Assembly: GCA_910589335.1 (NCBI GenBank)
Contig: CAJUTW010000001.1
Coordinates: 7,972-71,971, forward strand
Length of the DNA stretch: 64,000 nt
Direction of reading: 5' to 3'
Source of the DNA: an uncultured Bacilli bacterium
GTDB lineage: Bacteria > Bacillota_I > Bacilli_A > RF39 > UBA660
Positions 30,467 through 50,922 of this stretch are shown here, in pieces (the stretch's first letter is position 1; every line of letters starts with the position of its first letter). A model generated the notes under the pieces. The model was not told the DNA's origin and did not search any database. It saw nothing but the letters and a program-made list of their open reading frames with translations. Both the position numbers and the translations under genes were made by a program.

Positions 30467-30474
30467 GAGGCTTT

Positions 30475-32274: not shown

Positions 32275-32289
32275 TTAGGAGTAAGTAGT

Positions 32290-33123
32290 ATGGCTAGAAA
32301 GAAAAAGAAAAATAAATATAAAATATTTGTGTGTTTTGTTATTTTTTCTATACTTTTATTTGGTTTTATAGGTCTTCTATTATTTAAAAAATATTTTAAA
32401 GTTGAAGAAAGTATTTTTGAAATTGAATCAAGAAGTAGTAATGTAGTAGAAAATAAGAAAAAAGATAATGATGAATATGAGACGATAGGATGGTTGAGGG
32501 TACAAGGTACAAATATAGATTGTCCTATAATAACTGGAAAAACTGAATTATATAAATATCCTGTTGAGCTTGAGAATTATGGTTGGATGACAAATAAGGA
32601 TAGAAAAAATTATAATGTCATGAATATATTTGGTCATAATATTTTCAATTTAGGACCTTCTCCTAAAAAAAGTTCAAATAATTTTAAACGGTTTGAAGAG
32701 TTAATGAATTTTATTTATCATGATTTTGCACAAGAAAATAAATATATACAATTTACAATTAATGGAAAAGATTATGTTTATAAAATATTTTCAGTAAGTA
32801 TTATTTATGCTTCTGATGTTGATATGTTTCCTGAAGGAGAATATAGTAAGCAAGAGAAAAAAGATTATATTAAATTACTTAGAGATAATAGTATTTATGA
32901 TTATGATGTTGATGTATTAGAAGAAGATGATTTAATTTCTATTGTAACTTGTACTAGATTTTTAGGAACTGATGCATATAGAGATATTCTTGTTAGTGGT
33001 AGACTTGTGAGAGATGATGAAAAAATCTATAATAATTATTCTGTTGATAAAAATAATAATTATAAAAAAATAGATAAAGTTTTGAAAGGTGATGATAATA
33101 ATGAAGAAATTGGTTCTGCCTAA
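32290..33123 (+). CDS. srtB: Class B sortase
   Basis: Aligns with S. aureus SrtB: IGWLRVQGTNIDCPIITGKT, active His (IFGHNIF), catalytic Cys LISIVTCT and conserved Arg RDILVSGRLV. N-terminal membrane anchor. Confidence 0.8.
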   Translation: MARKKKKNKYKIFVCFVIFSILLFGFIGLLLFKKYFKVEESIFEIESRSSNVVENKKKDNDEYETIGWLRVQGTNIDCPIITGKTELYKYPVELENYGWMTNKDRKNYNVMNIFGHNIFNLGPSPKKSSNNFKRFEELMNFIYHDFAQENKYIQFTINGKDYVYKIFSVSIIYASDVDMFPEGEYSKQEKKDYIKLLRDNSIYDYDVDVLEEDDLISIVTCTRFLGTDAYRDILVSGRLVRDDEKIYNNYSVDKNNNYKKIDKVLKGDDNNEEIGSA

Positions 33124-35941
33124 AAGAATAATAGGGGTTTTTATTTTAATATGTATTTCTTTAGTTCCTTTCTTTAGTGTTGATGCTAAAGATAAAAGTA
33201 AATGTGAAGAAGTTCTTAGTGAAGATGCTGTAAAAAGATATGGCCTTCAATTTGAACCAAAAAATAAAAAAGAAAAGAAGTTTGTCATATCAATGGATCC
33301 TCAGACTGATAATAAAACGCTTCTTAGCAAATTAAAAAAAATAAAATTTAAGGTTATTAAAATAAATGGCTTTGAACAAAATCTCCCAACAGGAACTCTT
33401 AATTATAAAAATGATTTGGTTATGAATGCAGTTTGGCAAACAGTTGGAGACGAAAAGATAATGTCTGTTACATTAGAGTCAACTGTGGCGGATGTAGATG
33501 GTGATTTTTGTAAAGGAAAAGGAGTTATTCGTTTTACTTTAACATATATAAAGGGTGGTGATCCTCAAGAGCACAATGTATATATTGATACAAGTGATCT
33601 TGATAATGATAAAATAGATACAACAAATCCAATAGATTGTAACTCTAGTCCTAAAAGTGATTTAGATCGATTATTTTGCAATGCCAAAAAAAAGGTTTTA
33701 GAAAAACAACCAAGAGCAAAAAATAAAAAAAATTCAATTCATTTTAGTTTTGATGGAAAATATTATTCTGGTTATAATGATGATAAAGAAGTTAAATATG
33801 AATTAAAATGGGATAAATTTGATTTAGAAGAAAAAGATACTCCTACTTTTAAATGTGATTATAAAAGTGCTTATTCGTTAGATGAATTACAAGGAGATAA
33901 TTATTATAAAGAAGAAAACAAAAGTTATTTATATGGTTCTGGAAGTTATGAAATTCCTTTCAAATATAATTATCATTATTCTCCTGGTAGTGATCCTGAA
34001 ACACATAGTACATCATGTAAGGTTAAATGTGAAGAGGCTGTTACCATTGAATATGGACCTCCAGTAGCTTCTAAGGCTGGATTATGTTTTGAATATAAAG
34101 TAAAGGTTACAAGTGTAGTTAATTGTAGTATGACTAAACCACCTGAACCTCCAAAAACAGATTTTAGTTATTGTGATCCTGCTCCTATTTGTACTACAAG
34201 CAGTGGTTTTGTAAGTAATCAAGGTGGTCCAAATGAAGAGTTTGATAGTTGTATAAAAAATTGTGATGGTGGAAAATATACAGATAAATGTAATAATAAA
34301 TGCTATGAAGAAGTTTATAATAATTCTTTAGAAAAAGTAATGTTTAATTCATTGCAAATAGGTGCAATTGAAAAAATGGCAAACAGTAAATCAAAAATTA
34401 CAAAAAATAGAAAAAAAATTACTAAAAAGAATAATTTAAATAGACTTATTCAACATGATGAAAGTTACTTTTCAATGAATAATTGTAAAGCGATAAATAA
34501 TGGTGGATGTTATGCTAAAAATTCTGATGGTTCTATAAGATGGGAAGGAGGACCAACATTCGCTGGACGTTGGTATGATAATAACCCTCATAAAGATTAT
34601 AGTGAATATGTTAAAGACGGCTTTGGTTTTTGGCGACATCTATATAGAAACAAAAATGAAAAAGGAGAAATTATTGAAACTATTTGTACTGATAATTGTA
34701 AATGGGTTGGATGTGATAATGCTAAGTATTTAAATCCAAAATTTGCAGAACAAGATTATATAAATAACAAAAAGATTTATGATCAAGCTAAAAAGTTATG
34801 TAAAGCAGCAGCTAGTTGTTCAACAACAACAGCAACATTTACTATCTCTGTAGATTATAAACACAATGTAAAAAATGGAAATGGTTTTGAAACAAAATCT
34901 GAAACTATTGATTTCCCTTATGAAAATAAAAAAGATAAATTAAACAGTAATGGTACTAATACAGTGTGTAAGTCAGGAGATGCTCTTTGTAGATCAACTT
35001 TATTAGACAATGATGGATGCTATAAAGATAAAGAAAATGAAAGATGGTACAGAGCTGAATGGAGTTTCCCTGGAACATGGATTGAAAATAAAACTGGTAA
35101 TATAACTTATGTTCCAAAAACAGGTACAGATTGGCAAAATATGAAACAAAAATTTTGTATTCCATTAGATGCATTGGATGTTAACCAAAAATGGTGGAGA
35201 TATTATTACAATAAAAAATTAGCTACACCTAATTCTACAACAGATCCATCATATAAGAATGAATGTGGAAATAACTCTAATTCAATTACTAATCCTGCAA
35301 ATGTTACAAAAGAGGATATTACATGGAATATTCATGCTAAAACTAGAAAATTTGGTTTTTATGCATGGAATATTAATATAGATTGTTTCTATGCTTTAAA
35401 TAGTAATCCTGCAAATGTTTCTACTAGTGATGATAAATCTAAGCAAGATAAATGTATTATTAATGATCAAAAGGGTTCAAATGATTATAAAATAAGACCA
35501 GTAGATTTAACTAATCTATTCCCTGCTACTGATGGTGGAGATAGTAATTTAACTGATCCTAAGAGTACTGGAAGAACACCAGGATTTAACTGGTCACAGT
35601 ATGCTAATACAGGAAATAAAAATTTAAGTTATGCAAGTAAACCTAGTGAATATGTAGAAACTGTTCAAAGATTAGGATATAAAGTTTATAATGATGAAAA
35701 TTTGGATTATCAATTCATTTTAACTAGAGATATATTAAATGATATGAAGACTACAACTAAAGTTAATGGAAAAAATTATACTGAATTTAATGGTAAGACT
35801 GAAGTAAAAAATGGAGTTGTTCATTATATAAGTAGTGCTATTAGAAGTGGTAGTGAATTAAGTAAGGCCAAGAAAAAAATACCAGATAGTGGTAATATAT
35901 TCTGTAATAATATGAAAAATTATAGTCAGGGCTGTAGATAG
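33101..35941 (+). CDS. Large (947 aa) secreted cysteine-rich protein of unknown function
   Basis: Signal peptide MKKLVLPKRIIGVFILICISLVPFFSVDA. Many paired Cys. No C-terminal sorting signal. Confidence 0.5.
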   Translation: MKKLVLPKRIIGVFILICISLVPFFSVDAKDKSKCEEVLSEDAVKRYGLQFEPKNKKEKKFVISMDPQTDNKTLLSKLKKIKFKVIKINGFEQNLPTGTLNYKNDLVMNAVWQTVGDEKIMSVTLESTVADVDGDFCKGKGVIRFTLTYIKGGDPQEHNVYIDTSDLDNDKIDTTNPIDCNSSPKSDLDRLFCNAKKKVLEKQPRAKNKKNSIHFSFDGKYYSGYNDDKEVKYELKWDKFDLEEKDTPTFKCDYKSAYSLDELQGDNYYKEENKSYLYGSGSYEIPFKYNYHYSPGSDPETHSTSCKVKCEEAVTIEYGPPVASKAGLCFEYKVKVTSVVNCSMTKPPEPPKTDFSYCDPAPICTTSSGFVSNQGGPNEEFDSCIKNCDGGKYTDKCNNKCYEEVYNNSLEKVMFNSLQIGAIEKMANSKSKITKNRKKITKKNNLNRLIQHDESYFSMNNCKAINNGGCYAKNSDGSIRWEGGPTFAGRWYDNNPHKDYSEYVKDGFGFWRHLYRNKNEKGEIIETICTDNCKWVGCDNAKYLNPKFAEQDYINNKKIYDQAKKLCKAAASCSTTTATFTISVDYKHNVKNGNGFETKSETIDFPYENKKDKLNSNGTNTVCKSGDALCRSTLLDNDGCYKDKENERWYRAEWSFPGTWIENKTGNITYVPKTGTDWQNMKQKFCIPLDALDVNQKWWRYYYNKKLATPNSTTDPSYKNECGNNSNSITNPANVTKEDITWNIHAKTRKFGFYAWNINIDCFYALNSNPANVSTSDDKSKQDKCIINDQKGSNDYKIRPVDLTNLFPATDGGDSNLTDPKSTGRTPGFNWSQYANTGNKNLSYASKPSEYVETVQRLGYKVYNDENLDYQFILTRDILNDMKTTTKVNGKNYTEFNGKTEVKNGVVHYISSAIRSGSELSKAKKKIPDSGNIFCNNMKNYSQGCR

Positions 35942-36478: not shown

Positions 36479-37288
36479 ATGGGTAATTTAACTACAGGTT
36501 TAAAAAAATTTATGCAAAATAAAAATACTGTAACAGTAGTTGGTGTAATATTAGCTATTATAGTTTTATATGTTGCATATACATGGAGGATTAATAAAGC
36601 TGTTAATCCTCAAGTAGTTCCTTATGCTGCAGAACAAATTAATGCAGGAACACAAATTACAGAAAGTATGATTGCTACTAGAGAAGTTCCACCATCAATG
36701 ATTTCTGGAGATGTTTTAATAAATAAAGGAGATATAATCGATAAATATGCTGCTGCTGATACTGTAATTCCAGAAGGAAGTTTATTTTACAGAAGATCAG
36801 TAGTAGAAAAAGAACAGTTACCAGCAAATATAATTTTGGATTATCCAAAGGGGCATGTTCTTTATAATCTTTCAGTTAGTACAGAAAGTACTTACGGAAA
36901 TTCTGTTTATCCAGGAAATTATATAGATATTTATTTAAAAGCAGTTAATAAAATAGATGAATCAAACCCTGCAGCTTTAACAGCAGATGCTGATAAAATT
37001 ATGTTAGGTAAACTTATGTCTAATATTAAAGTTTTAGCAGTAAAAGATTCAGATGGAAATCCGGTTTTCCAAAATATTGATGAAAATAGAAAACCAGCAA
37101 TGATAGTGTTTGCGGTTCCAGAAGAATATTATATTTTACTTAAAAAAGCAGAATATATGAGAACTTATGATACTTCATTAAATATAGTTCCTACTAATGA
37201 AAGTTTAAAAGATGAACCAGCTGATTTGGAAATTAGTAGTGATCAGTTAAAAGAATGGATTAATTTACATACAGTAATGGATCAATAA
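36479..37288 (+). CDS. cpaB: Flp/Tad pilus assembly protein CpaB/RcpC (SAF domain)
   Basis: N-terminal TM plus a SAF-like segment (ITESMIATREVPPSMISGDVLINKGDI). Confidence 0.65.
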   Translation: MGNLTTGLKKFMQNKNTVTVVGVILAIIVLYVAYTWRINKAVNPQVVPYAAEQINAGTQITESMIATREVPPSMISGDVLINKGDIIDKYAAADTVIPEGSLFYRRSVVEKEQLPANIILDYPKGHVLYNLSVSTESTYGNSVYPGNYIDIYLKAVNKIDESNPAALTADADKIMLGKLMSNIKVLAVKDSDGNPVFQNIDENRKPAMIVFAVPEEYYILLKKAEYMRTYDTSLNIVPTNESLKDEPADLEISSDQLKEWINLHTVMDQ

Positions 37289-37325
37289 AAAAAGAATAAA
37301 GAATAAAAATAAGGGTGTGAGTTAG

Positions 37326-38819
37326 ATGAATGGTAGTATTTTTGATAAATTAGATTTTGGACCTTTTCGTTCACTTTTGGATAATGATGATATTACAGAT
37401 ATATCCTATGATAATAATGGACAAATATGGATACGTTCACTAACTCAAGGATCTTTAAGAGTTGAGGTAGAAGGAGCTACTCCAGATTTTGTAGAAAAGT
37501 TAGCATTTCAATGTTCAAATGTTATGGGAACAACATTTAATAATGCTAAACCATTTCTAGATGCAGAAAGTGCTGAGTTACGTATGAACTTTGTACATGA
37601 GTCAATAGCTACAAATGGAATAGCCCTTGTAATTCGTAAAACTCCGGCCAAGATAAGACTTGAAAAAGAAAAGCTAATTGAAGAGGATTATTTTACACCA
37701 GCAATTCATGATTTTTTAATAAAGTGTGTTGAAGGGCATTGTAATATAATGGTTGCTGGTGAAACTGGTTCTGGTAAGACTGAGTTTGTTAAATATTTAG
37801 CTAGTCATACTAAGACTAACGAAAAAATTATTACTATAGAAGATACTTTGGAACTTCATTTAGATAAGATATTTCCTCAAAGAGATATTGTTGCTATGAA
37901 AACTAATAATGTAGCAAGTTATTCTGATGTTTTAGTTACTTGTATGCGTCAGAATCCTAAATGGATATTATTATCCGAAGTTCGTAGTGCTGAGGCGGTA
38001 TCTGCGGTACGTAACTCAATTTCTTCAGGACATAATATTTTATCTACAATTCATGCCGATAAAGCATCAGCTATTCCATATCGTTTATATTCTTTAATGG
38101 AAACTGATTTGGATGTTCATCAATTTCTTACAACAATTTATAGATATATTCAATTAGGAGTTCATATTAAAGCTTTCTACAGTAAAGAATATGGAAAGTT
38201 TCATCGTGAACTTGATGAAGTATCTGAATTTTATGTTGATGATAATAATGAACCTAAATCAAGAATTATTTATCAAAAGATTTTTGGAAAACCAATTATG
38301 TGTCGACCTAGTGATCATTTAATTGAATATCTTGAAAATCAGAATATAGATGTAAGTGAAATTATAAAAGATTTACCAAAGGATTTACCACTTGTTAAAG
38401 CTGAAGATGAGAATATTACTTCTGATAATAATAATGAGGATGGAGATTCTTCATCTAATTTAGTAGATGATAATAAAGCTGATAATACTAATGATGTTAT
38501 TCCTGATGCTGCTTCTAATCCTATTGTAGCTGATAATTCTTCAAATCAGTCAAATGAGGTAGTTGCTAATAATCAAAATACTGTTTCAACTGATACTCAA
38601 GTAGTTGAACAACCTGTAATTCAGGCAGTAGCACAACCAGAGGTGGTAGAAGTAGTTAATGAACAAAAGAGTATTCCACCTATGCAAGAGGGAACAAATA
38701 ACGTTCAGTTATCATCTATTCCAATTGTTCAATCAGTTATTCCGCAACAAGTAGTTGAACAGCCAATTAATCCAGTTTTAAATAATCAAATTTCAACAAT
38801 AGCAAAATTAGATGAATAG
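37326..38819 (+). CDS. tadA: Tad/Flp pilus ATPase CpaF/TadA (secretion NTPase superfamily) with a 130-aa low-complexity C-terminal extension
   Basis: Walker A GETGSGKT, Walker B/Asp box RQNPKWILLSEVR, His box GHNILSTIHA. Confidence 0.8.
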   Translation: MNGSIFDKLDFGPFRSLLDNDDITDISYDNNGQIWIRSLTQGSLRVEVEGATPDFVEKLAFQCSNVMGTTFNNAKPFLDAESAELRMNFVHESIATNGIALVIRKTPAKIRLEKEKLIEEDYFTPAIHDFLIKCVEGHCNIMVAGETGSGKTEFVKYLASHTKTNEKIITIEDTLELHLDKIFPQRDIVAMKTNNVASYSDVLVTCMRQNPKWILLSEVRSAEAVSAVRNSISSGHNILSTIHADKASAIPYRLYSLMETDLDVHQFLTTIYRYIQLGVHIKAFYSKEYGKFHRELDEVSEFYVDDNNEPKSRIIYQKIFGKPIMCRPSDHLIEYLENQNIDVSEIIKDLPKDLPLVKAEDENITSDNNNEDGDSSSNLVDDNKADNTNDVIPDAASNPIVADNSSNQSNEVVANNQNTVSTDTQVVEQPVIQAVAQPEVVEVVNEQKSIPPMQEGTNNVQLSSIPIVQSVIPQQVVEQPINPVLNNQISTIAKLDE

Positions 38820-38831
38820 GGAGGTGTTAAG

Positions 38832-39734
38832 ATGTATTTTACTGAATTATTAATAATAATAATTGTTGTAGTAGGTATATTTTTATACAGAAATTATAAA
38901 GGAGAAAATGTTGGAAAATATGTAATTAATCAAGTACAAACTGTTTATGATAAATTTGCTCCTTATTCATTTAAAGTTGTTAGAGAAAAAACTAAGCAGT
39001 TAGGACAGGAATATACTCCTAGACAATATGCCATTCAAATATCTTTGTTTGCTGGATTTGCAGCAGTTGTTACATATTTATATTTTTATAATTTAATAAT
39101 AAGTTTAATTTATGCAATTGCCGCTGTTTCTTTTGTTCCATACCTTACATATTTAAGATGTAAAAAAGTATATTCTGAATTTATATTCGAGCAAGTACAA
39201 GTTTATACTTCAAATACAATAATGGAATTTGCAACTACTCAATCTTTTGTTAAAGCATTAGAAGGTGTTAGAGATTCTGGTGTTTTAGAAGATCCAGTGT
39301 TAAGTGATGTTAATCAAATGATAAATATGAGTTATGATAATGGTACGATAGATGAAGCTTTAGAATATATGAGTAGATTATATCCTTATTATATAGTTAA
39401 GAATATGCATCAATTATTTTTACAGATTACTAAAGAAGGTGCACAAAATTCTGCTGATTCCCTAGAAAATATGCAATTAGATATTGATATGCTAGTAGAG
39501 AGTGTTTATCGTGATAGAATCGAGAGAGCTTCATTTCATAAGTCTTTTTTACAATTTGGTATTATGCTTTATTTAATGGTAATGCTTGTGCAATATTTGT
39601 TAGGTAGAGAAACTTATTTAGTTTTATTAGAGCGATGGTATATTCAAATTTTAATGCATGGTGTTTTAATTGTTAATACATATTTTCTCTTAAAAGGGGA
39701 AAAATACTATAATGAGAATGTAGGTGCTGAGTAA
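38832..39734 (+). CDS. tadB: TadB-like platform protein (T2SSF/GspF domain)
   Basis: TM - helical cytoplasmic domain - TM topology, directly after the ATPase gene. Confidence 0.65.
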   Translation: MYFTELLIIIIVVVGIFLYRNYKGENVGKYVINQVQTVYDKFAPYSFKVVREKTKQLGQEYTPRQYAIQISLFAGFAAVVTYLYFYNLIISLIYAIAAVSFVPYLTYLRCKKVYSEFIFEQVQVYTSNTIMEFATTQSFVKALEGVRDSGVLEDPVLSDVNQMINMSYDNGTIDEALEYMSRLYPYYIVKNMHQLFLQITKEGAQNSADSLENMQLDIDMLVESVYRDRIERASFHKSFLQFGIMLYLMVMLVQYLLGRETYLVLLERWYIQILMHGVLIVNTYFLLKGEKYYNENVGAE

Positions 39735-40537
39735 TGGAGATATTAGTAGTAGGTGCAGTTATAATGTTTATCTTAATTTATAATAATACTATAGATAAAG
39801 ATAAATTTTTTGCTGATAATCAAAAATACTTAGAGGCCTTTAAAGAAGATGACTATCAGTTTTTAGTATATGCTAAATATGGTGAAGATGTGGATATAGA
39901 TCAATTATATTCTAAACGAGTAACCAATGCCTTTATTGTATTTCTTGTAATATTAGCGCTTACAATTACTGGTGGTGATTCGGCGGAAATAATTAATTCT
40001 CAATTTTTTCTTAATTTAGTTTTATCTACCGTAATTGCTGTTTTAGTTTTTAAAATGCCTTATATGGAATTAAAAAGATATTATAAGTTACATCTTCATG
40101 AAATAGATGTAATGTTACCATACTATCTAAAAAGTTTAGAGATTTTAATTCAACATTATACTGTTCCAGTTGCAATTGGTAAATCAATAGGAGATGCTCC
40201 TGATATATTTAGACCTGGACTTAGAAGAATGATTGATAGGATAAATTCTGGAGATGCTTCAGTTGATCCATATATGGAATTTGCTAATACATATCCTGTT
40301 AGGGATTCTATGCGTATGATGAGACTTTTGTATCGTTTAGGAATAGGGTCACAAGAGAAAAAACAAGAAAGATTGATGATGTTTTCTAAGACAGTATCAA
40401 GCTTACAGAATAAGGCAAGAGAAACTAAATATAAGGAAAGACTTTCACATATGGAAAGTCAAACAATGGTTATGCTTGTTGTAACTGGTATTGGAGTTAT
40501 GCTTGTAATTTTAATTTCAATGATGATGATGTTTTAA
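39734..40537 (+). CDS. tadC: TadC-like platform protein (T2SSF/GspF domain)
   Basis: Same TM - cytoplasmic domain - TM topology, paired with the TadB-like gene. Start overlaps the upstream stop. Confidence 0.65.
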   Translation: MEILVVGAVIMFILIYNNTIDKDKFFADNQKYLEAFKEDDYQFLVYAKYGEDVDIDQLYSKRVTNAFIVFLVILALTITGGDSAEIINSQFFLNLVLSTVIAVLVFKMPYMELKRYYKLHLHEIDVMLPYYLKSLEILIQHYTVPVAIGKSIGDAPDIFRPGLRRMIDRINSGDASVDPYMEFANTYPVRDSMRMMRLLYRLGIGSQEKKQERLMMFSKTVSSLQNKARETKYKERLSHMESQTMVMLVVTGIGVMLVILISMMMMF

Positions 40538-40547
40538 TTAAAATATG

Positions 40548-40576
40548 TTGTTAAAAATAATTAGATTTGTTATAAT
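40548..40576 (+). promoter_or_regulatory. Strong sigma-A-type promoter (TTGTTA-N17-TGtTATAAT) for the small pilin-like ORF
   Basis: Consensus extended -10, 33 nt upstream of ATG 40610. Confidence 0.55.
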
Positions 40577-40609
40577 TAATTTGTAAAAATAAGAAAGGAT
40601 GGGATAATA

Positions 40610-40759
40610 ATGAAAGCAGCTACAGGAGAATTAAATTTAACAGTAATTACTTTACTTGCTATTGCGGCAGTAATTGCATTTTTCTGGGCAATGTGGCCAA
40701 GTATTTCTGAAACAATTAATGGACAATGGACAAATATAAGTACATATGGAGCTAAATAG
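40610..40759 (+). CDS. Small (49 aa) Flp-type pilin candidate (absent from the ORF track)
   Basis: MKAATG/ELNLTVITLLAIAAVIAFFWAMW: short charged leader, Gly, then a hydrophobic helix. RBS AAGGATGG with an 8-nt spacer. Own consensus promoter. Position between tadC and tadE is typical of flp. Confidence 0.5.
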   Translation: MKAATGELNLTVITLLAIAAVIAFFWAMWPSISETINGQWTNISTYGAK

Positions 40760-40771
40760 GGGTGTTATTAG

Positions 40772-41215
40772 ATGAGAGATGGATTTGGAGGTATTTTAAA
40801 TATAGTTTTTATTGTAATATTTTTACTTATTGTAGAAGGTGTTTTAGGTTTAGTTGTTAATTATACTAAAGCTTTTAAGATGAAAAACAATGTTATTTCA
40901 ATGATAGAACAATATGAAGCTGCAGGTTGTTTTGAAAACTCAGGAAATAGTGCATGTGTTAAAAGAATAATTGATAAAGCTAAAGAAATAGGATACTCTC
41001 CTACCTCTCTTAACTGTCCTAGTGGGTATGATTCAGTTTACGATTTATTTTGTTATAGAGGGGAAATTGTAAAAAATACTGATAATTATACAAGTTCAAA
41101 ACCAACTGTATATAAAGTTGTAACTCAGGTAGATTTAAATTTACCACTTATAAGTAATATTTTAGGATTTAGTATTTTTCAGGTATCAGGAGACACTGAA
41201 GTTGTTGAGTCTTAA
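40772..41215 (+). CDS. TadE-like pseudopilin (paralog 1)
   Basis: MRDGFGGILNIVFIVIFLLIVEGVL TM plus NYTKAFKMKN, the TadE-like N-terminal domain pattern. Tandem paralog. Confidence 0.6.
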   Translation: MRDGFGGILNIVFIVIFLLIVEGVLGLVVNYTKAFKMKNNVISMIEQYEAAGCFENSGNSACVKRIIDKAKEIGYSPTSLNCPSGYDSVYDLFCYRGEIVKNTDNYTSSKPTVYKVVTQVDLNLPLISNILGFSIFQVSGDTEVVES

Positions 41216-41233
41216 TGGTTAGAAGGTGATTTT

Positions 41234-41677
41234 GTGCGTGATGCTTTGGGAGGAACAGTAGTTATTACAATAATTGTTATTTTTATAGTTTTTGTTTCAG
41301 CTTATTTAGCATTTAATGTTAATTATACTAAGGCTTTTAAGATGAAGAATAAAATTATTTCGACTTATGAGGAGTATAATGGTAAATGTGAAACTGATTG
41401 TAAAACAAAAATAAAAGAATATGCTGAAAGTATTGGTTATAAACCTAATCTTAATTGTGGTAGTTATGATGAAGACAGTAATGGATTATATTGTTATAAA
41501 TTAATGGAAGTTAAAAAGAATGCTTGTGATGAAGGATCTAAAAAATATTATAAAATTCAAACAAAAATTGATATAAGAGTTCCAATTGTTGATAGTATTT
41601 TAGGATTACAAGTTTTTGCTATAAGTGGAGATACAAAAGTATTTGAAGATAAATTTTCTTCTGGAAATTGCAAATAG
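41234..41677 (+). CDS. TadE-like pseudopilin (paralog 2)
   Basis: MRDALGGTVVITIIVIFIVFVSAYL plus NYTKAFKMKN. GTG start after AAGGTGA. Confidence 0.6.
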   Translation: MRDALGGTVVITIIVIFIVFVSAYLAFNVNYTKAFKMKNKIISTYEEYNGKCETDCKTKIKEYAESIGYKPNLNCGSYDEDSNGLYCYKLMEVKKNACDEGSKKYYKIQTKIDIRVPIVDSILGLQVFAISGDTKVFEDKFSSGNCK

Positions 41678-41707
41678 TATTTAAAATAAAAAGGATGTTG
41701 ATAAGGA

Positions 41708-42718
41708 ATGAATGTTATTGTAGCTAATACACAACAAAATGAGTTATCTAATTTAGATATTGATATTATAAAAAGTATTTCTGGTGTGTATGAGGCAGCA
41801 GAAATCGTTGAAATGTTTAAAAGTTTTTTTTATAGTAAGATGATTTTAGATGTTACTGCTATTAAACATTATAATGATTTAAAGACTTATGAGTTATTAA
41901 TTCAAGGTTTGGATCCTGAAAAAATAATTTTTTTATTACCTGAAGGAAGTGAACTATGTACTTCAAATTTTTTATCACATCTTATATCAATTGGTATTTA
42001 TAATTTTACAACTAATTTAAATGGTATAAAATTTTTATTAAAAAAGCCTAATACATTAAAAGATGTAGAACATATTAGAAAAATGGCTGGAATGGAAAAC
42101 TCTACAGAAACAGGAGCAAGTGTTGCTACTGTTACTACAAAAGTAGAAAGTGGAACAACTGTCATTGGTGTTAGAAATGTGACAGAACATGCTGGAGCTA
42201 CAACTTTCATATATATGTTAAAAAAAGAGTTAGCAATTGTTTATGGACAAGATAATGTAATTGCTATTGAAATTGATAAAAATGATTTTCAATTATTTAA
42301 TGATAAACATATGGTTTCTTGTAAACAGAGTGAAATTAAAAATATGTTTCAAAAATATAGTAATGCAACAATTATTTTAGTAGATCTTAATGGAAATGTA
42401 GAAGATGCATTCTGTGGAGAAGTTTTATATTTAGTAGAGCCTAGTACTTTAAGACTTAATAAAGTAGTTAGAAGAAATCGAAATTGTTTTAGTAAATTAG
42501 TTGGTAAAAAAGTTATTTTGAATCAAAGCTTACTTTTAAATAATGATGTTTTTGATTTTGAGAGTGAAGCAGGTATTAAAGTTTTTTATAATTTGCCGCC
42601 ACTTGATGAGCGAAAAAGAAATGCTATAATAAATGATTTTTTAACTAAATTAGGTTTATTTAATAAGAGTGTAAAAAACAATTCAGGAAATAAGATATTT
42701 GGATTGTTTAGACGCTAA
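41708..42718 (+). CDS. TadZ/CpaE-like pilus localisation protein with a degenerate nucleotide-binding motif
   Basis: N-terminal receiver-like region. ParA/MinD-like segment VIGVRNVTEHAGATTFIYMLKKELA lacks the canonical GK[ST]. Confidence 0.4.
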   Translation: MNVIVANTQQNELSNLDIDIIKSISGVYEAAEIVEMFKSFFYSKMILDVTAIKHYNDLKTYELLIQGLDPEKIIFLLPEGSELCTSNFLSHLISIGIYNFTTNLNGIKFLLKKPNTLKDVEHIRKMAGMENSTETGASVATVTTKVESGTTVIGVRNVTEHAGATTFIYMLKKELAIVYGQDNVIAIEIDKNDFQLFNDKHMVSCKQSEIKNMFQKYSNATIILVDLNGNVEDAFCGEVLYLVEPSTLRLNKVVRRNRNCFSKLVGKKVILNQSLLLNNDVFDFESEAGIKVFYNLPPLDERKRNAIINDFLTKLGLFNKSVKNNSGNKIFGLFRR

Positions 42719-42775: not shown

Positions 42776-43114
42776 ATGTTAGATTTAGTACAAATTGGAA
42801 CAGATGCGTGTGGAGGATTATTACCTTTAGTAAAAGTAATATATGCAGCAATCAAGTTAGTTATGGTTATAATTCCTATTGCTTTAATTATATATGGAAC
42901 AATAGATTTAGGAAAAGCAGTTATTGCAAGTGATGAAAAAGAAGTTAAATCTGCTCAAAGTAGACTAATTAAACGTATGATTTACGCAGCTCTTATATTC
43001 TTTATTCCAATGTTAGTTGGTGTAGTTATGAATATCGTATCTGCTGGTGAACAAGGAGATACTGAAAGCTGGAATAATTGTTGGCAAGCTGTAACTGGTG
43101 GAGATAGTGAATAG
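42776..43114 (+). CDS. Small Cys-flanked two-TM membrane protein (VirB2/TrbC-like topology), family member 1
   Basis: TDACGG ... TM ... FFIP ... TM ... NCWQAV. Homologous to the N-terminus of the ORF 21918 NlpC/P60 protein and to the ORF 43188 C-terminus. Confidence 0.55.
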   Translation: MLDLVQIGTDACGGLLPLVKVIYAAIKLVMVIIPIALIIYGTIDLGKAVIASDEKEVKSAQSRLIKRMIYAALIFFIPMLVGVVMNIVSAGEQGDTESWNNCWQAVTGGDSE

Positions 43115-43163
43115 TAATAGTAATTATTGCTATTTTTTTTTTATTTTGATATACTTATTATGT

Positions 43164-43172
43164 TATAATGTA
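43164..43172 (+). promoter_or_regulatory. Extended -10 element (TGtTATAAT) after a hairpin/T10 terminator-like sequence at 43115-43160
   Basis: tgttataat precedes the GGAG RBS and ATG 43188. Confidence 0.35.
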
Positions 43173-43187
43173 TGCGGAGTGTGTTTT

Positions 43188-43715
43188 ATGCGAAAAAGAA
43201 TATTAGTATTATTAGTATTAATTATGTCGTTTATGTTAATTATTCCAATAGAAGCTGATGCTCTTCCTAGTAGAGAAATTAATAATAATGAGTTATCTGA
43301 AAATGTTTTTATGTTAACTAAAATAGATAATATGAAGAAGAAAAAGAAAAAAACAGAACCAATAACTGATATTGATGATGTTGATGATTTATTGGATGAT
43401 TATGATCAAGAACAGGATTGTAATGGGTCTAATTCTATCTTTGGAGATCCTGAAGATGAGGATTCTGTAGCATGGCTTTTACAACAGGCTTTAAATTATA
43501 TTAAAGTTATTGGACCAATTTTAGTTGTAATTTTAAGTAGTATAGATTTTGTTTATGTAATAGTTAAGAGTGATGATGAGGCAATGAAAAAAGCTACAAA
43601 GAAATTAACTTATAGAATTATTTTAGCTCTTCTTTTATTCTTTATTCCTACATTAGTTCAAGTAGCATTAGATTTATTTGGAATGGCAACTGATCCTACT
43701 TGTGGTTTACATTAA
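43188..43715 (+). CDS. Secreted-leader two-TM membrane protein (VirB2/TrbC-like topology), family member 2
   Basis: Signal peptide MRKRILVLLVLIMSFMLIIPIEADA, an acidic region, then QDCNG ... TM ... LLFFIPTLV ... TM ... PTCG. Confidence 0.55.
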   Translation: MRKRILVLLVLIMSFMLIIPIEADALPSREINNNELSENVFMLTKIDNMKKKKKKTEPITDIDDVDDLLDDYDQEQDCNGSNSIFGDPEDEDSVAWLLQQALNYIKVIGPILVVILSSIDFVYVIVKSDDEAMKKATKKLTYRIILALLLFFIPTLVQVALDLFGMATDPTCGLH

Positions 43716-43734
43716 ATAAAAAGAGGTGAATTTT

Positions 43735-45891
43735 ATGGGAGATAGTAATTTAGAAGTTTCTAGTGTTACTAATGATATTATTAGAAATTTATTTTCTACA
43801 TTAGATAAACCTGCTTATTGGTTATTAGGCTTAGTTTACCAATTGTTTTTTAATGTTGCTTCTGCTGATTTGTTTAGTAATCAAACAGTAATGAATTTTT
43901 ATAAAAGAATCCAATTGATTATTGGAGTTTTTATGATGTTTCAACTAGCTGTTACTATAATTAGAGGAATAGTTAATCCTGATACTTTTACGGATTCGAA
44001 AAATGGTGCAACTAATTTAATTAAGAGAGTAGCAATTTCTTTAGTTTTAATGACTCTCTTAGTTCCTATAAATATTCCGGGTGCAAAAAACGAATGGGAA
44101 AGACAGCTTAATAATCATGGGTTTTTATTTGGTGGTCTTTATTCACTACAACATAGAGTACTTAGTAATAATACATTAGGTAGACTTATACTTGGAAATG
44201 ATGATTCGGCTGAATCGTTTACTGAAAGTGATTTTAATGATGATGATAGTAGTTTAGCAAAGTCTGCTAGAATTTTTACATCGACGATTCTAAAAGGATT
44301 TTATAGAATAAATTTAATTCCTTATGAAGATCGTGTTCATAAAAAAGGTAGAGATGACGCTACTATAAATGAAAATAGAGTATGTAAAAATATGGATGAT
44401 GCAATACTAAATTCTTATACAAGACTTGATGCAGATCCTGGAGATATCATTGCTTTAGTTACATATGATTGTGAATATGAAGCAGCTGAATCTAATGCGA
44501 TACAAAATGTTATTAGTTTAATTAATAAGAAATGGGCTGGTCAGATGCGATATGGATTTGCTTATATGCCTTTTATATCAGCAATTGTTGCATTTGTATT
44601 TGTATTTATTCTTCTTAATTTTACTGTTGAAGTTGCTGTTCGAGCTGTTAAATTGGCTGTATTAAGATTAATTGCTCCAATACCTATTATTTCATATATG
44701 GATCCTAAAGGAGGAAAAGATTCTGCTTTCGGTTCTTGGGTTAAAACTTTAACGACAACTTATTTAGATTTATTTATAAGATTAGCTACTGTATACTTTG
44801 TGTTATTCTTAATACAAGATATGATAGTTAATGGTATTTATATTAATCAAGGAGAAGGAATTTTAGGGGTACTGTCATTTATCTTAATTTTAATTGGTTT
44901 ATTTGTTTTTGCAAAACAAGCACCTAAGTTTATTAAACAAGTTTTAGGAATAAAAGATGAAGGTGGTAAGTTCTTAAGTGGAATTAGTGATTTAGCTGCT
45001 GCTACTTCTATTGCTGCTGGAACTGTTGGTTCTGCTCTTAATAGTTTTCGTGCTGCTAAAGAAGAAAATGATGCTTTACATGAAGGCAGTGTACTTAATG
45101 GATTTAGAAATTTTGGTTCTGCAATAGCAGGTGCTATTGGTGGTGGAGCAGCTGGTGCTAAAGCCTTTATGGGAAAAGATGCTTCTGCTCAAGCTGTTAG
45201 AGCAGCTATGGATCAAAGAAATGCTATGCGTGCAGCTCATTCAACTGCTACAGGTAGACTTGCAAGTAATGCATATGGTTTGCTTCGAGGTGAATCTTTA
45301 GCAGCTAGAGATCAAGCTATATTAGAAGCTAATAAGGCAGCATCTACATCAATTAAAGCATTTAAAACAACAGCTGTGGAAGAGGCTATGAAAAAAGGAA
45401 GTTACGGAAACGTATCAACTGCTAATGATAGGTTTGGAAGATTAACAGGAATTAACTTTAATTATCGTCAATTGGAAGCTGCGATTAATACAAAGGATAA
45501 TAGTGGTAATTTTGATTATACAGATTCTACTGGAACTGTACATCATTTGAATGCTGCATGGTTTGATTCTTCAGTTATGGCTGATATTGAAGATAGTCAA
45601 ACAGCTAATTATTTAAAAAGTGATTATGATGAACATACTGGTAAATTTGCAAATAATAAACTTAATACTGATTGGCGTAATGCTAAACATGATATGTCAG
45701 AAGCTAAAATAGATTATCGTGGAAATTATCTTGGAGATATTGGAGCTGGTTCAGGAGTTAATATTAATGGTGCAGATTATGCTTATAAAGATATTGGTAA
45801 GAGCATAGGTGTTGCCAATGAAAATGTTGCTAATATGAATACAGATATGAAACATATTATGAATCGTGCTAATAGTCAAAACAAAAAATAG
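43735..45891 (+). CDS. VirB6/TrbL-like polytopic T4SS channel protein (ConG/TcpH-like) with a long Ala/Gly-rich C-terminal extension
   Basis: Periplasmic N-domain followed by at least five TM helices (FISAIVAFVFVFILL, LAVLRLIAPIPII, LATVYFVLFLIQDMIV, ILGVLSFILILIGLFVF). Confidence 0.6.
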   Translation: MGDSNLEVSSVTNDIIRNLFSTLDKPAYWLLGLVYQLFFNVASADLFSNQTVMNFYKRIQLIIGVFMMFQLAVTIIRGIVNPDTFTDSKNGATNLIKRVAISLVLMTLLVPINIPGAKNEWERQLNNHGFLFGGLYSLQHRVLSNNTLGRLILGNDDSAESFTESDFNDDDSSLAKSARIFTSTILKGFYRINLIPYEDRVHKKGRDDATINENRVCKNMDDAILNSYTRLDADPGDIIALVTYDCEYEAAESNAIQNVISLINKKWAGQMRYGFAYMPFISAIVAFVFVFILLNFTVEVAVRAVKLAVLRLIAPIPIISYMDPKGGKDSAFGSWVKTLTTTYLDLFIRLATVYFVLFLIQDMIVNGIYINQGEGILGVLSFILILIGLFVFAKQAPKFIKQVLGIKDEGGKFLSGISDLAAATSIAAGTVGSALNSFRAAKEENDALHEGSVLNGFRNFGSAIAGAIGGGAAGAKAFMGKDASAQAVRAAMDQRNAMRAAHSTATGRLASNAYGLLRGESLAARDQAILEANKAASTSIKAFKTTAVEEAMKKGSYGNVSTANDRFGRLTGINFNYRQLEAAINTKDNSGNFDYTDSTGTVHHLNAAWFDSSVMADIEDSQTANYLKSDYDEHTGKFANNKLNTDWRNAKHDMSEAKIDYRGNYLGDIGAGSGVNINGADYAYKDIGKSIGVANENVANMNTDMKHIMNRANSQNKK

Positions 45892-45914
45892 AATAAAGAG
45901 GAGTGTGAGATATA

Positions 45915-46226
45915 GTGAATTATTTAATTCCTGCTAATACGAAGAAGGGGCAATTAATATTAGGTTTATTTAGACCTTTTGATTTGGGATTGTTTGCAGG
46001 AGGAGTGTTGGTAACTGTAATATTACTAGCATTTCTTCCTTTAAATAATACGGCTGTTACTATTTTAATACTTAGTCCAGCTTTTATTACTGGTTTTTTA
46101 GTTATGCCAGTTCCTTATTATCATAATATGTTAAATATTATAGTCGAGATGTATGAGTTTTTTACGAATCGTCAGACTTATAGATGGAAAGGTTGGTGTT
46201 ATAAAAGTGTCCAAAAAAGGAAATAG
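45915..46226 (+). CDS. VirB3-like/PrgI-family small membrane protein
   Basis: 103 aa with two TM helices, immediately upstream of and overlapping VirB4. GTG start. Confidence 0.5.
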   Translation: MNYLIPANTKKGQLILGLFRPFDLGLFAGGVLVTVILLAFLPLNNTAVTILILSPAFITGFLVMPVPYYHNMLNIIVEMYEFFTNRQTYRWKGWCYKSVQKRK

Positions 46227-46758
46227 TAGTGGTTTTACTGAGGATTGGTTACCAGTTAGAGCCATTCAAAATAATATGATTATTACTCGTGATAATTTTA
46301 AAGTTAGTGGAGTAAAAATTTCTCCGCGAAATATATTTATTTTGGATCCGCAAATGCAAAATAATATGTTAGTTGCACTTAGAAATTTTTATAATACAAT
46401 TGATTATGAGTTTTGGTTAGTAGTTGCTGATAGACCAGTTGATATATCTGTATATATGTCACAGATGCAATTACTACTAAATGATACACAATCTCCTGCT
46501 GTTAGAAAGCTAATTATGCAAGATATACAAAAAGGGGAAACTTTTATTACTAATAATGTTGTTGATACTGAATATTATTTTATGTTTAAGTCAAAAGATC
46601 AAGATTTACTTATGAAGAGAGTTCGTCAAATGATTAATGGACTTGCAACGTGTGGATTGAATGCTTCACTTATTAGTAATTCAGATTTAAGATTAGTACT
46701 TGAAAACTTCCTAAATGGAGGTACTACTACAGAGTTTGGAACGGTGATGCCAGTATGA
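46153..46758 (+). CDS. virB4: VirB4-like ATPase, N-terminal segment (separate frame; true start uncertain, perhaps GTG 46207)
   Basis: Gram-positive VirB4 N-domain pattern (EDWLPVRAIQNNMIITRDNFKVSGVKISPRNIFIL...). Ends in an ATGA overlap with the next ORF. Confidence 0.6.
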   Translation: MSFLRIVRLIDGKVGVIKVSKKGNSSGFTEDWLPVRAIQNNMIITRDNFKVSGVKISPRNIFILDPQMQNNMLVALRNFYNTIDYEFWLVVADRPVDISVYMSQMQLLLNDTQSPAVRKLIMQDIQKGETFITNNVVDTEYYFMFKSKDQDLLMKRVRQMINGLATCGLNASLISNSDLRLVLENFLNGGTTTEFGTVMPV

Positions 46759-48545
46759 GTATAGGTTTAAGAAGTCAATTAGCTCCTAAGGGGTTACATT
46801 TTAATTCAAGTGATTTTATCATAAGTGATAAATATGCAACAATTTTAACAGTTGTTTCTTATCCAAAATATATTATGCCAGGATATTTATCTTCTTTAAC
46901 TAATATGTCAGGAATTAAGGTTGTTGTTAAACATATACCTGTTCCTTTTCAAGAAATGGCTAAAATGTTAAATAAACAAGTTGCTGATTTAAAAGAAAAA
47001 TATCAAACTGAAAGAGATCAAACTGTTCGTGAAAGAATTAGACAGGATGCAGAAAGTTTAGAATATTTTACTTCTATGCTTGCTGGTAGTCAGGCTCGTA
47101 TTTTTGATTTTCAAATGCATATTATGATTACAGCTGATACAAAAGAAGAACTTGAATTAAAGAAACTTAATGTTAGAAATTATTTAGATTCAATGGAGTT
47201 AAAAGCTATAGCTTTACGTTTTGAACAAGAAAAAGTATTAAAATCTATCTTACCTATTTTTCCTGCACAAGATGTTGAACAGAGAATTGGAACACCGATT
47301 CCTTCTGTAACTATTTCAGCAATGTACCCTTTTATTTTTGATAGTATAAAAGATCCAGGACTTTCAACTTTACTTGGAGTTGACTTTTCTGGAGGAGTTA
47401 TTTTATTTAATCAATTTTTATATAAAATACGTAAAGAAAATAATAGAAATAATGCTAATATGATTATTTTAGGTACATCGGGATCTGGAAAATCTACAGC
47501 AGCTAAATTAATGCTTAGAACTCATATTAGAAATGGATGTCAAATTGTAATAATTGATCCTGAAGATGAATTTAGAGAACTTACTCGTACATTTGGTGGA
47601 GATACAGTTGATATTGGAAAGGGTGGAGAATTTGGTTTAATTAATCCACTTGAAATTGTTATTGATGCTGATGAAGAAGAAATAAAACAAGGATTAGGTT
47701 ATACAGTTTTAACTAGAACTTTACAATTTTTAAAAGCATTTATGAAGTATTATGATCCTTCTATAGAAGAAGATGTATTAACAATGTTTTCTGAAATTGT
47801 ACAAGATACTTATAAAAGATTTGGAATAGATTTTAATGCTGATTTTTCAAGATATACATCAGCTGATTATCCTACTTTTAGTGATGTTTATGCAACTATA
47901 AAAGGTAGGCTTATGTCAATGACTGATCAAACACAAGAACGTGATATTATGGAAAGACTTGAATTAAAAGTTAGACCAATTGTTAAAGAATTGAAATTCT
48001 ATTTTGATGGTCATACAACAATTAGAAAAGATAGCGATTTCATGGTTTTTAATATAAAAGAATTAATGAACAGTGACTCAACTGTTAAAAATGCTTTATT
48101 CTTTAATGTATTAAAATATGCTTGGGGTCTTTGTTTAGATTTTAATGTTGATACAGTTTTAATGGTAGATGAGGCGCATGTTTTACTTGGAGATAATAAT
48201 GCATTAGGAGCTGATTTCTTGGCTCAAGTTCAACGTCGTGCTCGTAAGTATAATACAGGTACAATAATTATTACTCAACAACCTAGTGATTTTTCTAATC
48301 AAGCTGTTATAACACAAGGAAAAGCTATTTTTGATAATTCATCATATTATCTTGTTATGGGGCTTAAAAAACAAGCTGTTGAAGATTTATCTTTATTAAT
48401 AGATTTAAATGAAAGTGAAAAAGAAAGTATTAAACGTTATTCTCAAGGAGAGGCTTTATTCGTTTGTGGAAATAGGCGTATGAGAATTAATATTGCAGTT
48501 ACTCAAGAAGAGTTAGACTCTTTTGGAGTAGGTGGAGGTTTTTAG
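46755..48545 (+). CDS. virB4: VirB4-like T4SS ATPase, C-terminal segment (ConE/TcpF/PrgJ-type)
   Basis: Walker A GTSGSGKST, Walker B LMVDEAHVLL, IIITQQPSD motif. Confidence 0.85.
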   Translation: MSIGLRSQLAPKGLHFNSSDFIISDKYATILTVVSYPKYIMPGYLSSLTNMSGIKVVVKHIPVPFQEMAKMLNKQVADLKEKYQTERDQTVRERIRQDAESLEYFTSMLAGSQARIFDFQMHIMITADTKEELELKKLNVRNYLDSMELKAIALRFEQEKVLKSILPIFPAQDVEQRIGTPIPSVTISAMYPFIFDSIKDPGLSTLLGVDFSGGVILFNQFLYKIRKENNRNNANMIILGTSGSGKSTAAKLMLRTHIRNGCQIVIIDPEDEFRELTRTFGGDTVDIGKGGEFGLINPLEIVIDADEEEIKQGLGYTVLTRTLQFLKAFMKYYDPSIEEDVLTMFSEIVQDTYKRFGIDFNADFSRYTSADYPTFSDVYATIKGRLMSMTDQTQERDIMERLELKVRPIVKELKFYFDGHTTIRKDSDFMVFNIKELMNSDSTVKNALFFNVLKYAWGLCLDFNVDTVLMVDEAHVLLGDNNALGADFLAQVQRRARKYNTGTIIITQQPSDFSNQAVITQGKAIFDNSSYYLVMGLKKQAVEDLSLLIDLNESEKESIKRYSQGEALFVCGNRRMRINIAVTQEELDSFGVGGGF

Positions 48546-48574
48546 AAAATAGAAAAGAAGTAAGGTGATGTAGT

Positions 48575-50914: not shown

Positions 50915-50922
50915 GAGAATTT

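Follow-up and report, generated by a model that had tools for sequence, protein, structure and literature searches.

The model conjugation operon of plasmid pLS20 contains, according to the published gene table (PMC8557374) and annotated records, a string of genes for an adhesin, a 126-aa protein with an N-terminal transmembrane (TM) segment, an ATPase, two membrane proteins of 268 and 243 aa, a 120-aa protein with an N-terminal TM segment, a 47-aa single-TM protein and a 76-aa two-TM protein, followed by VirD4, VirB6, VirB4, VirB8 and VirB1. In that table gene 37 is a putative VirB11, gene 49 is VirB6 and gene 52 is VirB4; genes 36, 38–41 and 45 are listed as unknown, and neither pilus components nor a VirB2 homologue are reported (PMC8557374). 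Reviews describe Gram-positive type IV secretion systems (T4SSs) as devoid of both pili and pilins, with Patescibacteria as the sole exception, and our literature search found no paper linking pLS20 to a Tad-like pilus. Here, we analyzed a 64-kb stretch of a contig from an uncultured Bacilli bacterium (CAJUTW010000001.1; the window), which contains a gene cluster with similarities to both T4SSs and Tad (type IVc) pili. Its central part is probably, if by no means certainly, a strongly diverged Tad-derived assembly module within a chromosomal Gram-positive T4SS supercluster with no recognisable relaxase, and not a free-standing adhesion pilus locus. An earlier note on this DNA described a Tad-like module whose pilin sites are non-canonical and which has no prepilin peptidase gene nearby, and this description holds. 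Absent from it was the context: the module forms part of a T4SS cluster, with which it is strictly colinear, and is, with uneven support, homologous to pLS20 genes 36–41.

Location and conservation of the cluster

The window has a G+C content of ~25% and nearly all of its genes are on the plus strand. A housekeeping run (RuvX, YceG, U32 peptidases, HD hydrolase) ends at GreA (27403-27882) and housekeeping genes resume at 55406 (rhodanese, RmuC, Ku/ligase, tRNA synthetase). Between both blocks lies a single unbroken plus-strand cluster (27937-55349). Judging by the housekeeping genes on both sides, the cluster is chromosomal, and the same flanks recur in a second assembly and on metagenome contigs of independent origin. 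Assembly GCA_948897115.1 contains the right-hand flank together with the VirD4 end of the cluster. A megablast search with the region gave no match in plasmid and phage collections, and tblastn searches of plasmids with the TadZ-like and DUF5411 proteins were likewise negative at E 1e-3; profile methods, unlike tblastn, did reveal DUF5411 homologues on pLS20-type plasmids. No relaxase or integrase domain was found by a Pfam scan of the cluster proteins (27.9-55.3 kb), and the test for a conjugative element (relaxase, plasmid or integrative and conjugative element) came out negative for the cluster.

The TadZ-like protein of the module belongs to a family with 4549 members when clustered at 90%; clustering at 50% leaves 438 representatives, and a relative is encoded in at least 563 species genomes. 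From these, 80 loci, each from a different species, were listed and compared; pilin conservation was counted in 79 species. All 80 are from metagenome-assembled genomes or metagenome assemblies of uncultured gut or rumen organisms, labelled mostly Bacilli, Tenericutes or Erysipelotrichaceae, and they include Clostridium sp. CAG:451, Candidatus Faecimonas gallistercoris and one complete 1.52-Mb chromosome (OZ006970.1). To the reach of each contig, gene order is the same in every one of them: Ig-like surface protein, sortase, 950-aa secreted protein, DUF5411, CpaB, ATPase, two membrane proteins, pilin, pseudopilin, TadZ-like protein, two PF18895 T4SS pilins, VirB6, VirB3-like protein, TraC-like protein, VirB4, SpoIID-domain hydrolase and a 262-aa protein. 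In the window itself, VirD4 comes next (Table 1). The TadZ-like proteins of these species are only 48-81% identical overall, and the conservation of motifs at such divergence is far more than expected by chance.

Relationship to the pLS20 conjugation operon

The module appears homologous to pLS20 genes 36–41, in order, with pairwise support of uneven strength. The ATPase shares 36% identity over 289 aa (E 2.5e-49) with the product of gene 37, which is annotated as tadA in sequence records, and its top-scoring plasmid matches in PLSDB are pLS20-family Bacillus plasmids. The protein in the TadC position is well supported as a counterpart of p39 (hhalign probability 95%, E 4.1e-8, 156 columns). 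The DUF5411 protein aligns with p36 at E 4.6e-4; p36 itself matches Pfam DUF5411 at E 1.4e-5, and one p36 homologue is named 'DUF5411 family protein' by PGAP. The pseudopilin-like proteins align with p36 at E 1.2e-4 and, weakly, with p40 (E 0.012), to which they are alike in size and topology. The same holds for the pilin and p41 (E 0.013), whereas the alignment of the TadB-position protein with p38 (E 0.015) is weak, yet the best in its row. These weaker pairs are always best or near-best on the diagonal. Farther downstream, pLS20 gene 45 (76 aa, two TM segments; 12981-13211 of the retrieved stretch) scores 32.1 bits on PF18895 T4SS_pilin, above the cut-off of 26.6, although no VirB2 homologue was reported for this plasmid. 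A Peribacillus homologue of p45 is annotated as 'TrbC/VirB2 family protein', and in the pLS20-family stretch that we read the PF18895 pilin is followed by VirD4 and a transmembrane protein. VirB2-type pilins of monoderms are known from Patescibacteria only, according to a 2025 review. The gut Bacilli clade, with two PF18895 genes per locus, and pLS20 p45 look like additional cases. Of the T4SS proteins, VirB4 of the window shares 29-30% identity with its counterparts on Bacillus and Mycoplasmatota plasmids.

Table 1. Features of the cluster and their positions in the window
Feature	Position	Strand	Evidence or remark
Surface module: 299-aa and 517-aa membrane proteins, Ig-like surface protein, sortase, 950-aa Cys-rich secreted protein	27937..35941	+	Colinear with Tad-like genes in related loci
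Sortase	32290-33123	+	Within surface module; conserved in cluster
DUF5411 protein, 166 aa	35963..36463	+	Pfam DUF5411, E 3.9e-43; first gene of module
CpaB/RcpC-like protein, 269 aa, N-terminal TM segment	36479..37288	+	SAF, RcpC, TIGR03177, hhalign
Secretion ATPase of CpaF/TadA-FlaI-VirB11 group, 497 aa	37326..38819	+	Pfam T2SSE, 95.7 bits (cut-off 24.9)
TadB-position polytopic membrane protein, putative platform subunit, 300 aa	38832..39734	+	4 hydrophobic segments; hhalign, position
TadC-position polytopic membrane protein, putative platform subunit, 267 aa	39734..40537	+	4 hydrophobic segments; hhalign to pLS20 p39
Promoter-like site TTGTTA-17-TATAAT with TG	40548..40576	+	In 72-bp gap 5' of pilin gene
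Flp-sized major pilin candidate, 49 aa	40610..40759	+	Leader MKAATG, then ELNLTVIT and hydrophobic helix
Pseudopilin-like protein A, 147 aa	40772..41215	+	Leader MRDGFG, then hydrophobic helix
Pseudopilin-like protein B, 147 aa	41234..41677	+	GTG start; paralogue of A
TadZ-like two-domain protein, 336 aa	41708..42718	+	AlphaFold2 model, Foldseek, conserved motif
Promoter-like site	42723-42751	+	5' of two T4SS_pilin genes
Two VirB2-like T4SS_pilin genes	42776..43715	+	PF18895, E 3e-4 and 5.9e-6 (26.7 bits)
T4SS core	43726..54119	+	VirB6/TrbL, VirB3-like, TraC-like, VirB4, SpoIID-domain hydrolase, 262-aa protein, VirD4
VirB6/TrbL	43726-45891	+	
VirB3-like protein, 103 aa	Between VirB6 and VirB4	+	
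VirB4	46755-48545	+	
VirD4 coupling protein	51768-54119	+	

Pilin and pilin-like proteins

The smallest protein of the module is a candidate pilin which starts with MKAATGELNLTVITLL..., so that a glutamate stands immediately after Gly6; its ATG is preceded by a ribosome-binding site (AAAGGA). The N-terminus M-K-x-A-T-G-E-L-N-x-T is almost invariant across the sampled species, with A4, G6, E7, L8, T11 and T14 conserved in 100% of them, and the C-terminal half of the protein varies freely. Position +5 is Thr and +6 is Val (G/ELN[LM]TV), both invariant or nearly so, which departs from the Flp pattern G/XXXXEY. Thus, the glutamate at +1 after the glycine (ATG/ELNL), without either the Flp or the type IV pattern, is not a peculiarity of the one sequence in which it was noticed. 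None of the Pfam families Flp, N_methyl and TadE matched any of 41 members of the pilin family. Four of the 41 weakly matched PF07790, the archaeal pilin N-terminus (best E 0.0024, under the curated threshold); this is the Pfam family with matches from the most small-pilin members and gives a hint only. The site is truly different from both Flp (G/XXXXEY) and the type IVa/b and Com pilins (Glu5) in having an invariant Glu at +1 and Asn/Thr at +3/+5, and the motif is genuinely new. Loss of Glu5 by itself is less unusual for a Tad system than had been proposed, since the Tad-like pilins of a pXO1-like Bacillus plasmid lack it as well. A pilin class in which the conserved acidic residue stands at +1 and not at +5 bears on how the buried N-terminus is neutralised in type IV filaments.

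Proteins A and B, the two larger pilin-like proteins, start with MRDGFG/GILNI and MRDALG/GTVVI, respectively. Residue +5 is Ile in both, in agreement with the previous remark that these TadE-like proteins lack Glu+5, and the whole family has a hydrophobic residue and no Glu at this position. D3, A4, G6 and G7 are at least 90% conserved. Among 40 homologues there was no match to TadE (PF07811) and a single one to PF13400 (E 0.071); the G/XXXXE[FY] pattern was not found. The AlphaFold2 model of protein A (predicted local distance difference test score, pLDDT, 79) contains an N-terminal helix (residues 2-51), a second helix (61-72) and a four-stranded sheet, a predicted layout that is pilin-like. 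In most of 30 species sampled, queries with A and with B led to a single gene, and the pair is therefore a duplication limited to closer relatives. The hydrophobic helix of copy A contains a glutamate (..LIVEG..), also present in copy A of some close relatives. The DUF5411 protein has an N-terminal TM segment, the start M-[NS]-K-[GA]-M-L-x-V-G and a pilin-like topology.

Three protein families of the cluster share a six-residue leader, M-[KRQ]-x-[AG]-x-G, in 79-80 species. Its glycine is invariant or nearly so and is retained in proteins otherwise diverged to ~30-50% identity. Conservation of this residue at the same distance from Met1 is what recognition by a peptidase predicts.

CpaB, ATPase and platform-position proteins

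Identification of the CpaB-like protein by sequence profiles is secure. It matches SAF above the cut-off (28.9 bits) and falls just under it with RcpC (26.0 bits); TIGR03177 is matched at E 6.2e-10, also under the cut-off. In hhalign it pairs with the annotated CpaB of a Bacillus plasmid (probability 99.3%, E 1e-20) and with a proteobacterial CpaB (E 8.7e-5).

The ATPase has an intact Walker A motif (GETGSGKT), and the His box is also readable in its sequence. Its best PDB matches are CpaF (2.8e-18), FlaI (3.6e-18) and VirB11 (3e-14), and the NCBIfam models for VirB11 (111.7 bits), the TadA family (102.6 bits) and FlaI all score far under their cut-offs. By sequence it is of the CpaF/VirB11 type, and we do not place it more finely. 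The C-terminal third (38300-38819) is a tail of low complexity with many N, Q, V and P residues, and its length varies between species. Full-length homologues in related loci have 366-737 aa and the few shorter ones are fragments.

Two polytopic membrane proteins follow. Searches of PDB sequences with family profiles of the TadB- and TadC-like proteins gave nothing meaningful. In hhalign, the TadB-position protein finds its best partners on the TadB diagonal only: besides pLS20 p38, these are the counterpart from the pXO1-like plasmid, with which it aligns over the full length (E 0.0015, 269 columns), and a canonical TadB (E 0.039). The TadB-type relatives in turn weakly match Pfam T2SSF, at E 0.011 for the pXO1-like protein and at 0.19. 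The TadC-position protein aligns with its pXO1-like counterpart at E 0.0013, and both membrane proteins of the window match their positional counterparts only.

TadZ-like protein

The AlphaFold2 model of the TadZ-like protein (pLDDT 90.9) has an alpha/beta domain (residues 1-133) and a second domain from residue 151. The first looks receiver-like from its alternating strands and helices. For the second, Foldseek returned BcsQ, HypB, MinD, ParA and FleN at probability 1.0 with E of only ~1e-3; the 50 fold matches listed did not include the solved TadZ structure. No Pfam or NCBIfam model matched the protein, and a PDB search with the family profile gave nothing meaningful. As modelled, a receiver-like domain joined to a MinD/ParA-like one is the TadZ architecture of the literature.

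The loop of the window protein reads GVRNVTEHAGATT, and the consensus of 46 diverse relatives is IIGxKNxTxHAGAT[TS], with Ala at the position of the Walker A lysine. Thus, the family consensus bears out the reading TEHAGATT in place of GGxGK[ST] in the ParA/MinD-like region. Canonical TadZ has the motif K/RGGXGXS/T, which is also without the GK[ST] lysine; it binds ATP and hydrolyses it poorly. Loss of the lysine is accordingly no departure from TadZ, the yardstick applied before having been the MinD/ParA motif, but loss of KGG is. In the family, other residues stand in place of GG and the loop has three additional residues; when aligned from the C-terminal side, KGG is replaced (by T-E-H in the window protein) and only G-x-T-T is kept. 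Judging by this loop, the protein is probably a pseudo-ATPase scaffold that does not bind nucleotide.

Prepilin peptidase

Peptidase_A24 had no Pfam match among all open reading frames (ORFs) of at least 90 aa in the window. The scanned set included every window ORF of 80 aa or longer that has at least three hydrophobic segments, and none of these had an A24 match: they encode a histidine kinase, TspO, two rhomboids, a VTT protein, an MscS-like channel, VirB6, the T4SS pilins, the TadB/C-like pair and a 517-aa protein. The latter, a polytopic product of the surface module, was considered as a hidden peptidase and rejected, having no GxGD-type motif and no Pfam match. No A24 gene was found in ~7 kb past the right end of the window, and in the 80 related species the 10 kb on either side of the locus contained no polytopic ORF resembling A24. 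Thus, the claim that no TadV/A24 gene lies in or near the locus stands, from the window to the related species. The claim that this is atypical does not. A survey of type IV filament loci counts tadV as a 'loner' gene, which may lie away from the rest of the system, describes the sharing of peptidases among systems, and finds no peptidase gene in any MSH locus (PMC6668835); the tad loci of Bdellovibrio also lack a prepilin peptidase. Likewise, A24 is not annotated in the ~83 kb examined of a Mycoplasmatota plasmid that carries canonical Flp pilins (G/SPSLEY). Absence of a local peptidase is ordinary for Tad systems because tadV is commonly encoded apart from the locus.

A24 peptidases have one near-absolute requirement, Gly at -1. 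Cleavage of the pilin-like proteins by an unlinked A24 enzyme is, on the conserved leaders, about an even prospect. The two alternatives set out in the earlier note, a peptidase encoded elsewhere or subunits that assemble unprocessed, were rightly posed, the latter being the less probable (see below). As for its overall verdict that the locus is unusual for Tad, the pilin motif sustains it, while the other three points are weaker than was claimed.

Proposed mechanism and alternative explanations

We infer the following arrangement. The CpaF/VirB11-type ATPase, with its catalytic motifs intact, would dock on the two polytopic platform proteins and drive membrane extraction and polymerisation of the 43-residue helical pilin. 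One or two larger pilin-like subunits, and possibly the DUF5411 protein, would prime polymerisation, and CpaB would span the wall side. The TadZ-like protein, which has lost both Walker A lysines, would serve as a nucleotide-independent scaffold or positioning factor. The lineage-specific class-III-type signal (a leader of 4-6 residues with an invariant Gly at its end, no Glu5) would most likely be cut by an A24 peptidase encoded elsewhere. The resulting filament or short pseudopilus may work with the VirB2-like/VirB6/VirB4/VirD4 channel and the sortase and adhesin genes in cell-to-cell contact and transfer.

Several observations weigh against a Tad-derived module of this kind. Gram-positive T4SSs are generally held to be without pili (2025 review). 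NCBIfam places VirB11 marginally above TadA for the ATPase. The Pfam T2SSF model matched neither the platform-position proteins of the window nor any of 31 homologues of the TadB-position protein, and the TadB- and TadC-like proteins align with each other at E 0.0018 but with an hhalign probability of just 14.6%, so that their paralogy is not supported. The Tad interpretation is least secure in the putative TadB/TadC assignment, for which the evidence is position, topology and low profile scores. Foldseek of the 147-aa model against PDB gave no significant match. In addition, no peptidase gene is linked to the cluster in the window or in the 80 loci, and pLS20 p36, p40 and p41 have no conserved Gly, from which the ancestral state may have been uncleaved. 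Alternatively, the ATPase could be a plain VirB11 of the T4SS and its neighbours T4SS-specific subunits without pilus function, the resemblance to Tad being superficial. VirB11 is the best NCBIfam match, the pLS20 literature gives gene 37 the same name, and platform and pilin genes have no Pfam matches. Yet CpaB is solid here, PDB ranks both CpaF and FlaI over VirB11, and the TadB-position relatives do touch T2SSF. We know of no VirB11 system with a CpaB, a TadZ-like protein, paired polytopic partners or a Flp-sized single-helix protein, and consider this explanation unlikely. Still less probable is an independent adhesive Tad pilus that merely adjoins the T4SS with no functional link. Tad pili are usually adhesive, and a promoter-like site lies inside the cluster, 5' of the pilin gene. 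Against such independence stand the colinearity in 80 loci whose TadZ-like proteins are as diverged as described above, the same linkage in pLS20-family and Mycoplasmatota plasmids, and the absence of terminator-like sites between the blocks.

The fate of the leaders is a separate matter. If there were no prepilin peptidase at all, the leaders would be kept, and the subunits would assemble unprocessed or stay membrane-anchored in a T4SS envelope complex. Consistent with this are the extremely short leaders, the lack of an A24 gene near the locus in the window and 80 species and of an annotated one in the pLS20-family and pXO1-like plasmid stretches read, and the pLS20 homologues without a conserved Gly before the hydrophobic segment. 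However, Gly6 is 100% conserved among the pilins and occurs in at least 90% of the 147-aa proteins, with equal spacing from Met1, and peptidase genes are commonly unlinked. In type IV filaments, pilins left unprocessed are normally not assembled. We regard the unprocessed state as less likely than cleavage. Removal of the leaders by a protease other than A24, such as a rhomboid encoded in the window or the cluster sortase, is very improbable. Two rhomboid genes are at hand (17987-19141 and 61189-61773), and the sortase has no LPXTG substrate in the cluster. The rhomboid genes, however, lie outside the cluster among housekeeping genes, and a T-G dipeptide occurs in the pilin only. Furthermore, the active sites of rhomboids and sortases face outward, whereas a class-III leader is cytoplasmic. 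The reading that we favour is a Tad-derived module whose leaders may be cut by a distant A24 enzyme.

In a wider perspective, it is conceivable, although we would stop somewhat short of expecting it, that a subset of Gram-positive T4SSs, including those of this small-genome gut Bacilli clade of at least 563 species and of the pLS20 family, holds a Tad-derived (pseudo)pilus sub-machine. The pLS20 'VirB11' would then be a TadA-type motor acting with genes 36 and 38–41. The machine of the gut clade would be a domesticated, chromosomal one, in which no relaxase was found and the pilin signal is M-K-x-A-T-G/E-L-N-x-T, with Glu at +1 and not at +5. Retention of CpaB and the TadZ-like protein in the gut clade makes the Tad ancestry of the block visible, and a testable function is thereby suggested for a conserved and unassigned part of the pLS20 operon.

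Surface genes, transcription signals and other genes of the window

Despite the sortase gene, no LPXTG-type signal coupled to a C-terminal anchor was seen in the cluster proteins that were checked. Action of the sortase on proteins of the cluster was rejected for this reason. Promoter-like sites occur across the whole region at chance level, and the one in the gap 5' of the pilin gene is only suggestive.

Five kilobases upstream of the cluster, among housekeeping genes, is a gene for an NlpC/P60 cell-wall hydrolase (21918-22787), the N-terminal segment of which weakly matches T4SS_pilin (E 1.7e-4). A blastp search with this protein gave matches in 73 of the fetched loci, probably T4SS pilin paralogues. 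The rhomboid protease genes flank the cluster on either side. Besides the full GreA at the left border of the cluster, there is a second GreA-related gene (11084-11617), for a 177-aa protein that weakly matches the GreA C-terminal domain. Just downstream of the cluster, Ku and an ATP-dependent DNA ligase form a pair (58308-59948; non-homologous end joining). Near the left end of the window (1480-5485), an AAA_25 (RepA/KaiC-like) gene on the minus strand is followed by five small ORFs without family. The AAA_25 protein was recorded on two short contigs only and its neighbouring genes on dozens; this stretch may be a strain-variable mobile element.

Comparison with known systems

Like canonical Tad/Flp loci (Aggregatibacter tad, Caulobacter cpa and an Azospirillum plasmid locus), the window encodes CpaB, a Flp-sized pilin along with larger pilin-like proteins, a TadZ-like protein modelled with two domains, and a CpaF/VirB11-type ATPase whose gene precedes those of two membrane proteins. 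It differs from them in having no adjacent TadV, a G/ELNxT pilin instead of G/XXXXEY and pseudopilins without Glu5. Also, its platform-position proteins escape the T2SSF model, the TadZ loop lacks KGG and Lys, and the module lies inside a T4SS cluster. The absence of a secretin, another difference from canonical Tad, is expected for a monoderm. The pXO1-like Bacillus plasmid encodes CpaB, a MinD-like ATPase, CpaF and two hypothetical membrane proteins, with no local peptidase annotated in the stretch read. Its three Tad-like pilins of 67 aa (..SSENG/MLIAL) are without Glu5, and its MinD-like protein, unlike the TadZ-like protein of the window, keeps a normal P-loop (AAA_31, E 2.5e-15). In the DUF5411/CpaF/PilC operons of Roseburia, Ruminococcus and Eubacterium, DUF5411 is a marker, as in the window; in contrast to the window, the available descriptions of these Clostridia operons and of the TANB77 cluster, as far as we could consult them, mention no T4SS genes.

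Cooperation of a type IV-filament machine with a VirB4/VirD4 machine is known from the IncI R64 thin pilus, PAPI-1, the T4SS of Patescibacteria and the Ced/Ups systems of Sulfolobales. The Patescibacteria T4SS resembles that of the window in occurring in reduced genomes, mostly without relaxase, and in its PF18895 pilins. By analogy with the T4SS and type IV pili (T4P) of Patescibacteria, the machine of the gut clade may serve cell-to-cell interaction or exchange. In the reviewed T4P and T4SS partnerships, the two are described as separate gene clusters or machines, whereas the window has one colinear operon in which the filament part is, on our reading, Tad-derived.

The plasmid of Mycoplasmatota bacterium zrk4 (CP074574.1, 12167-45900; GC 26%) carries a T4SS and, directly after it, SAF/CpaB, a MinD-like ATPase, CpaF, two platform proteins, pilins and a 1650-aa surface protein. 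Its VirB4 is 30% identical to that of the window. Unlike in the window, the pilins have canonical sites (G/SPSLEY, G/GVIFEY, G/SLSLEF), the T2SSF model matches one of the platform proteins and the gene order is different; the ATPase is just 27% identical to that of the window. With pLS20 the window shares the adhesin, DUF5411, the ATPase, two polytopic membrane proteins, putative counterparts of the ~120-aa protein with an N-terminal TM segment and of the ~47-aa single-TM protein, and the PF18895 pilin; in both, a canonical prepilin motif is lacking and a peptidase gene was not seen in the stretches read. The pilin gene and the gene of the 120-aa type are in swapped order. pLS20 is a conjugative plasmid with a relaxase, without CpaB and without a TadZ-like gene, whereas the cluster of the window is chromosomal, had no relaxase found in it and is conserved across hundreds of species. 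The lineage of the window is therefore intermediate between a canonical Tad locus beside a T4SS, as in Mycoplasmatota, and the stripped-down block of pLS20, and its locus defines a large surface/transfer machine in abundant uncultured gut Bacilli.

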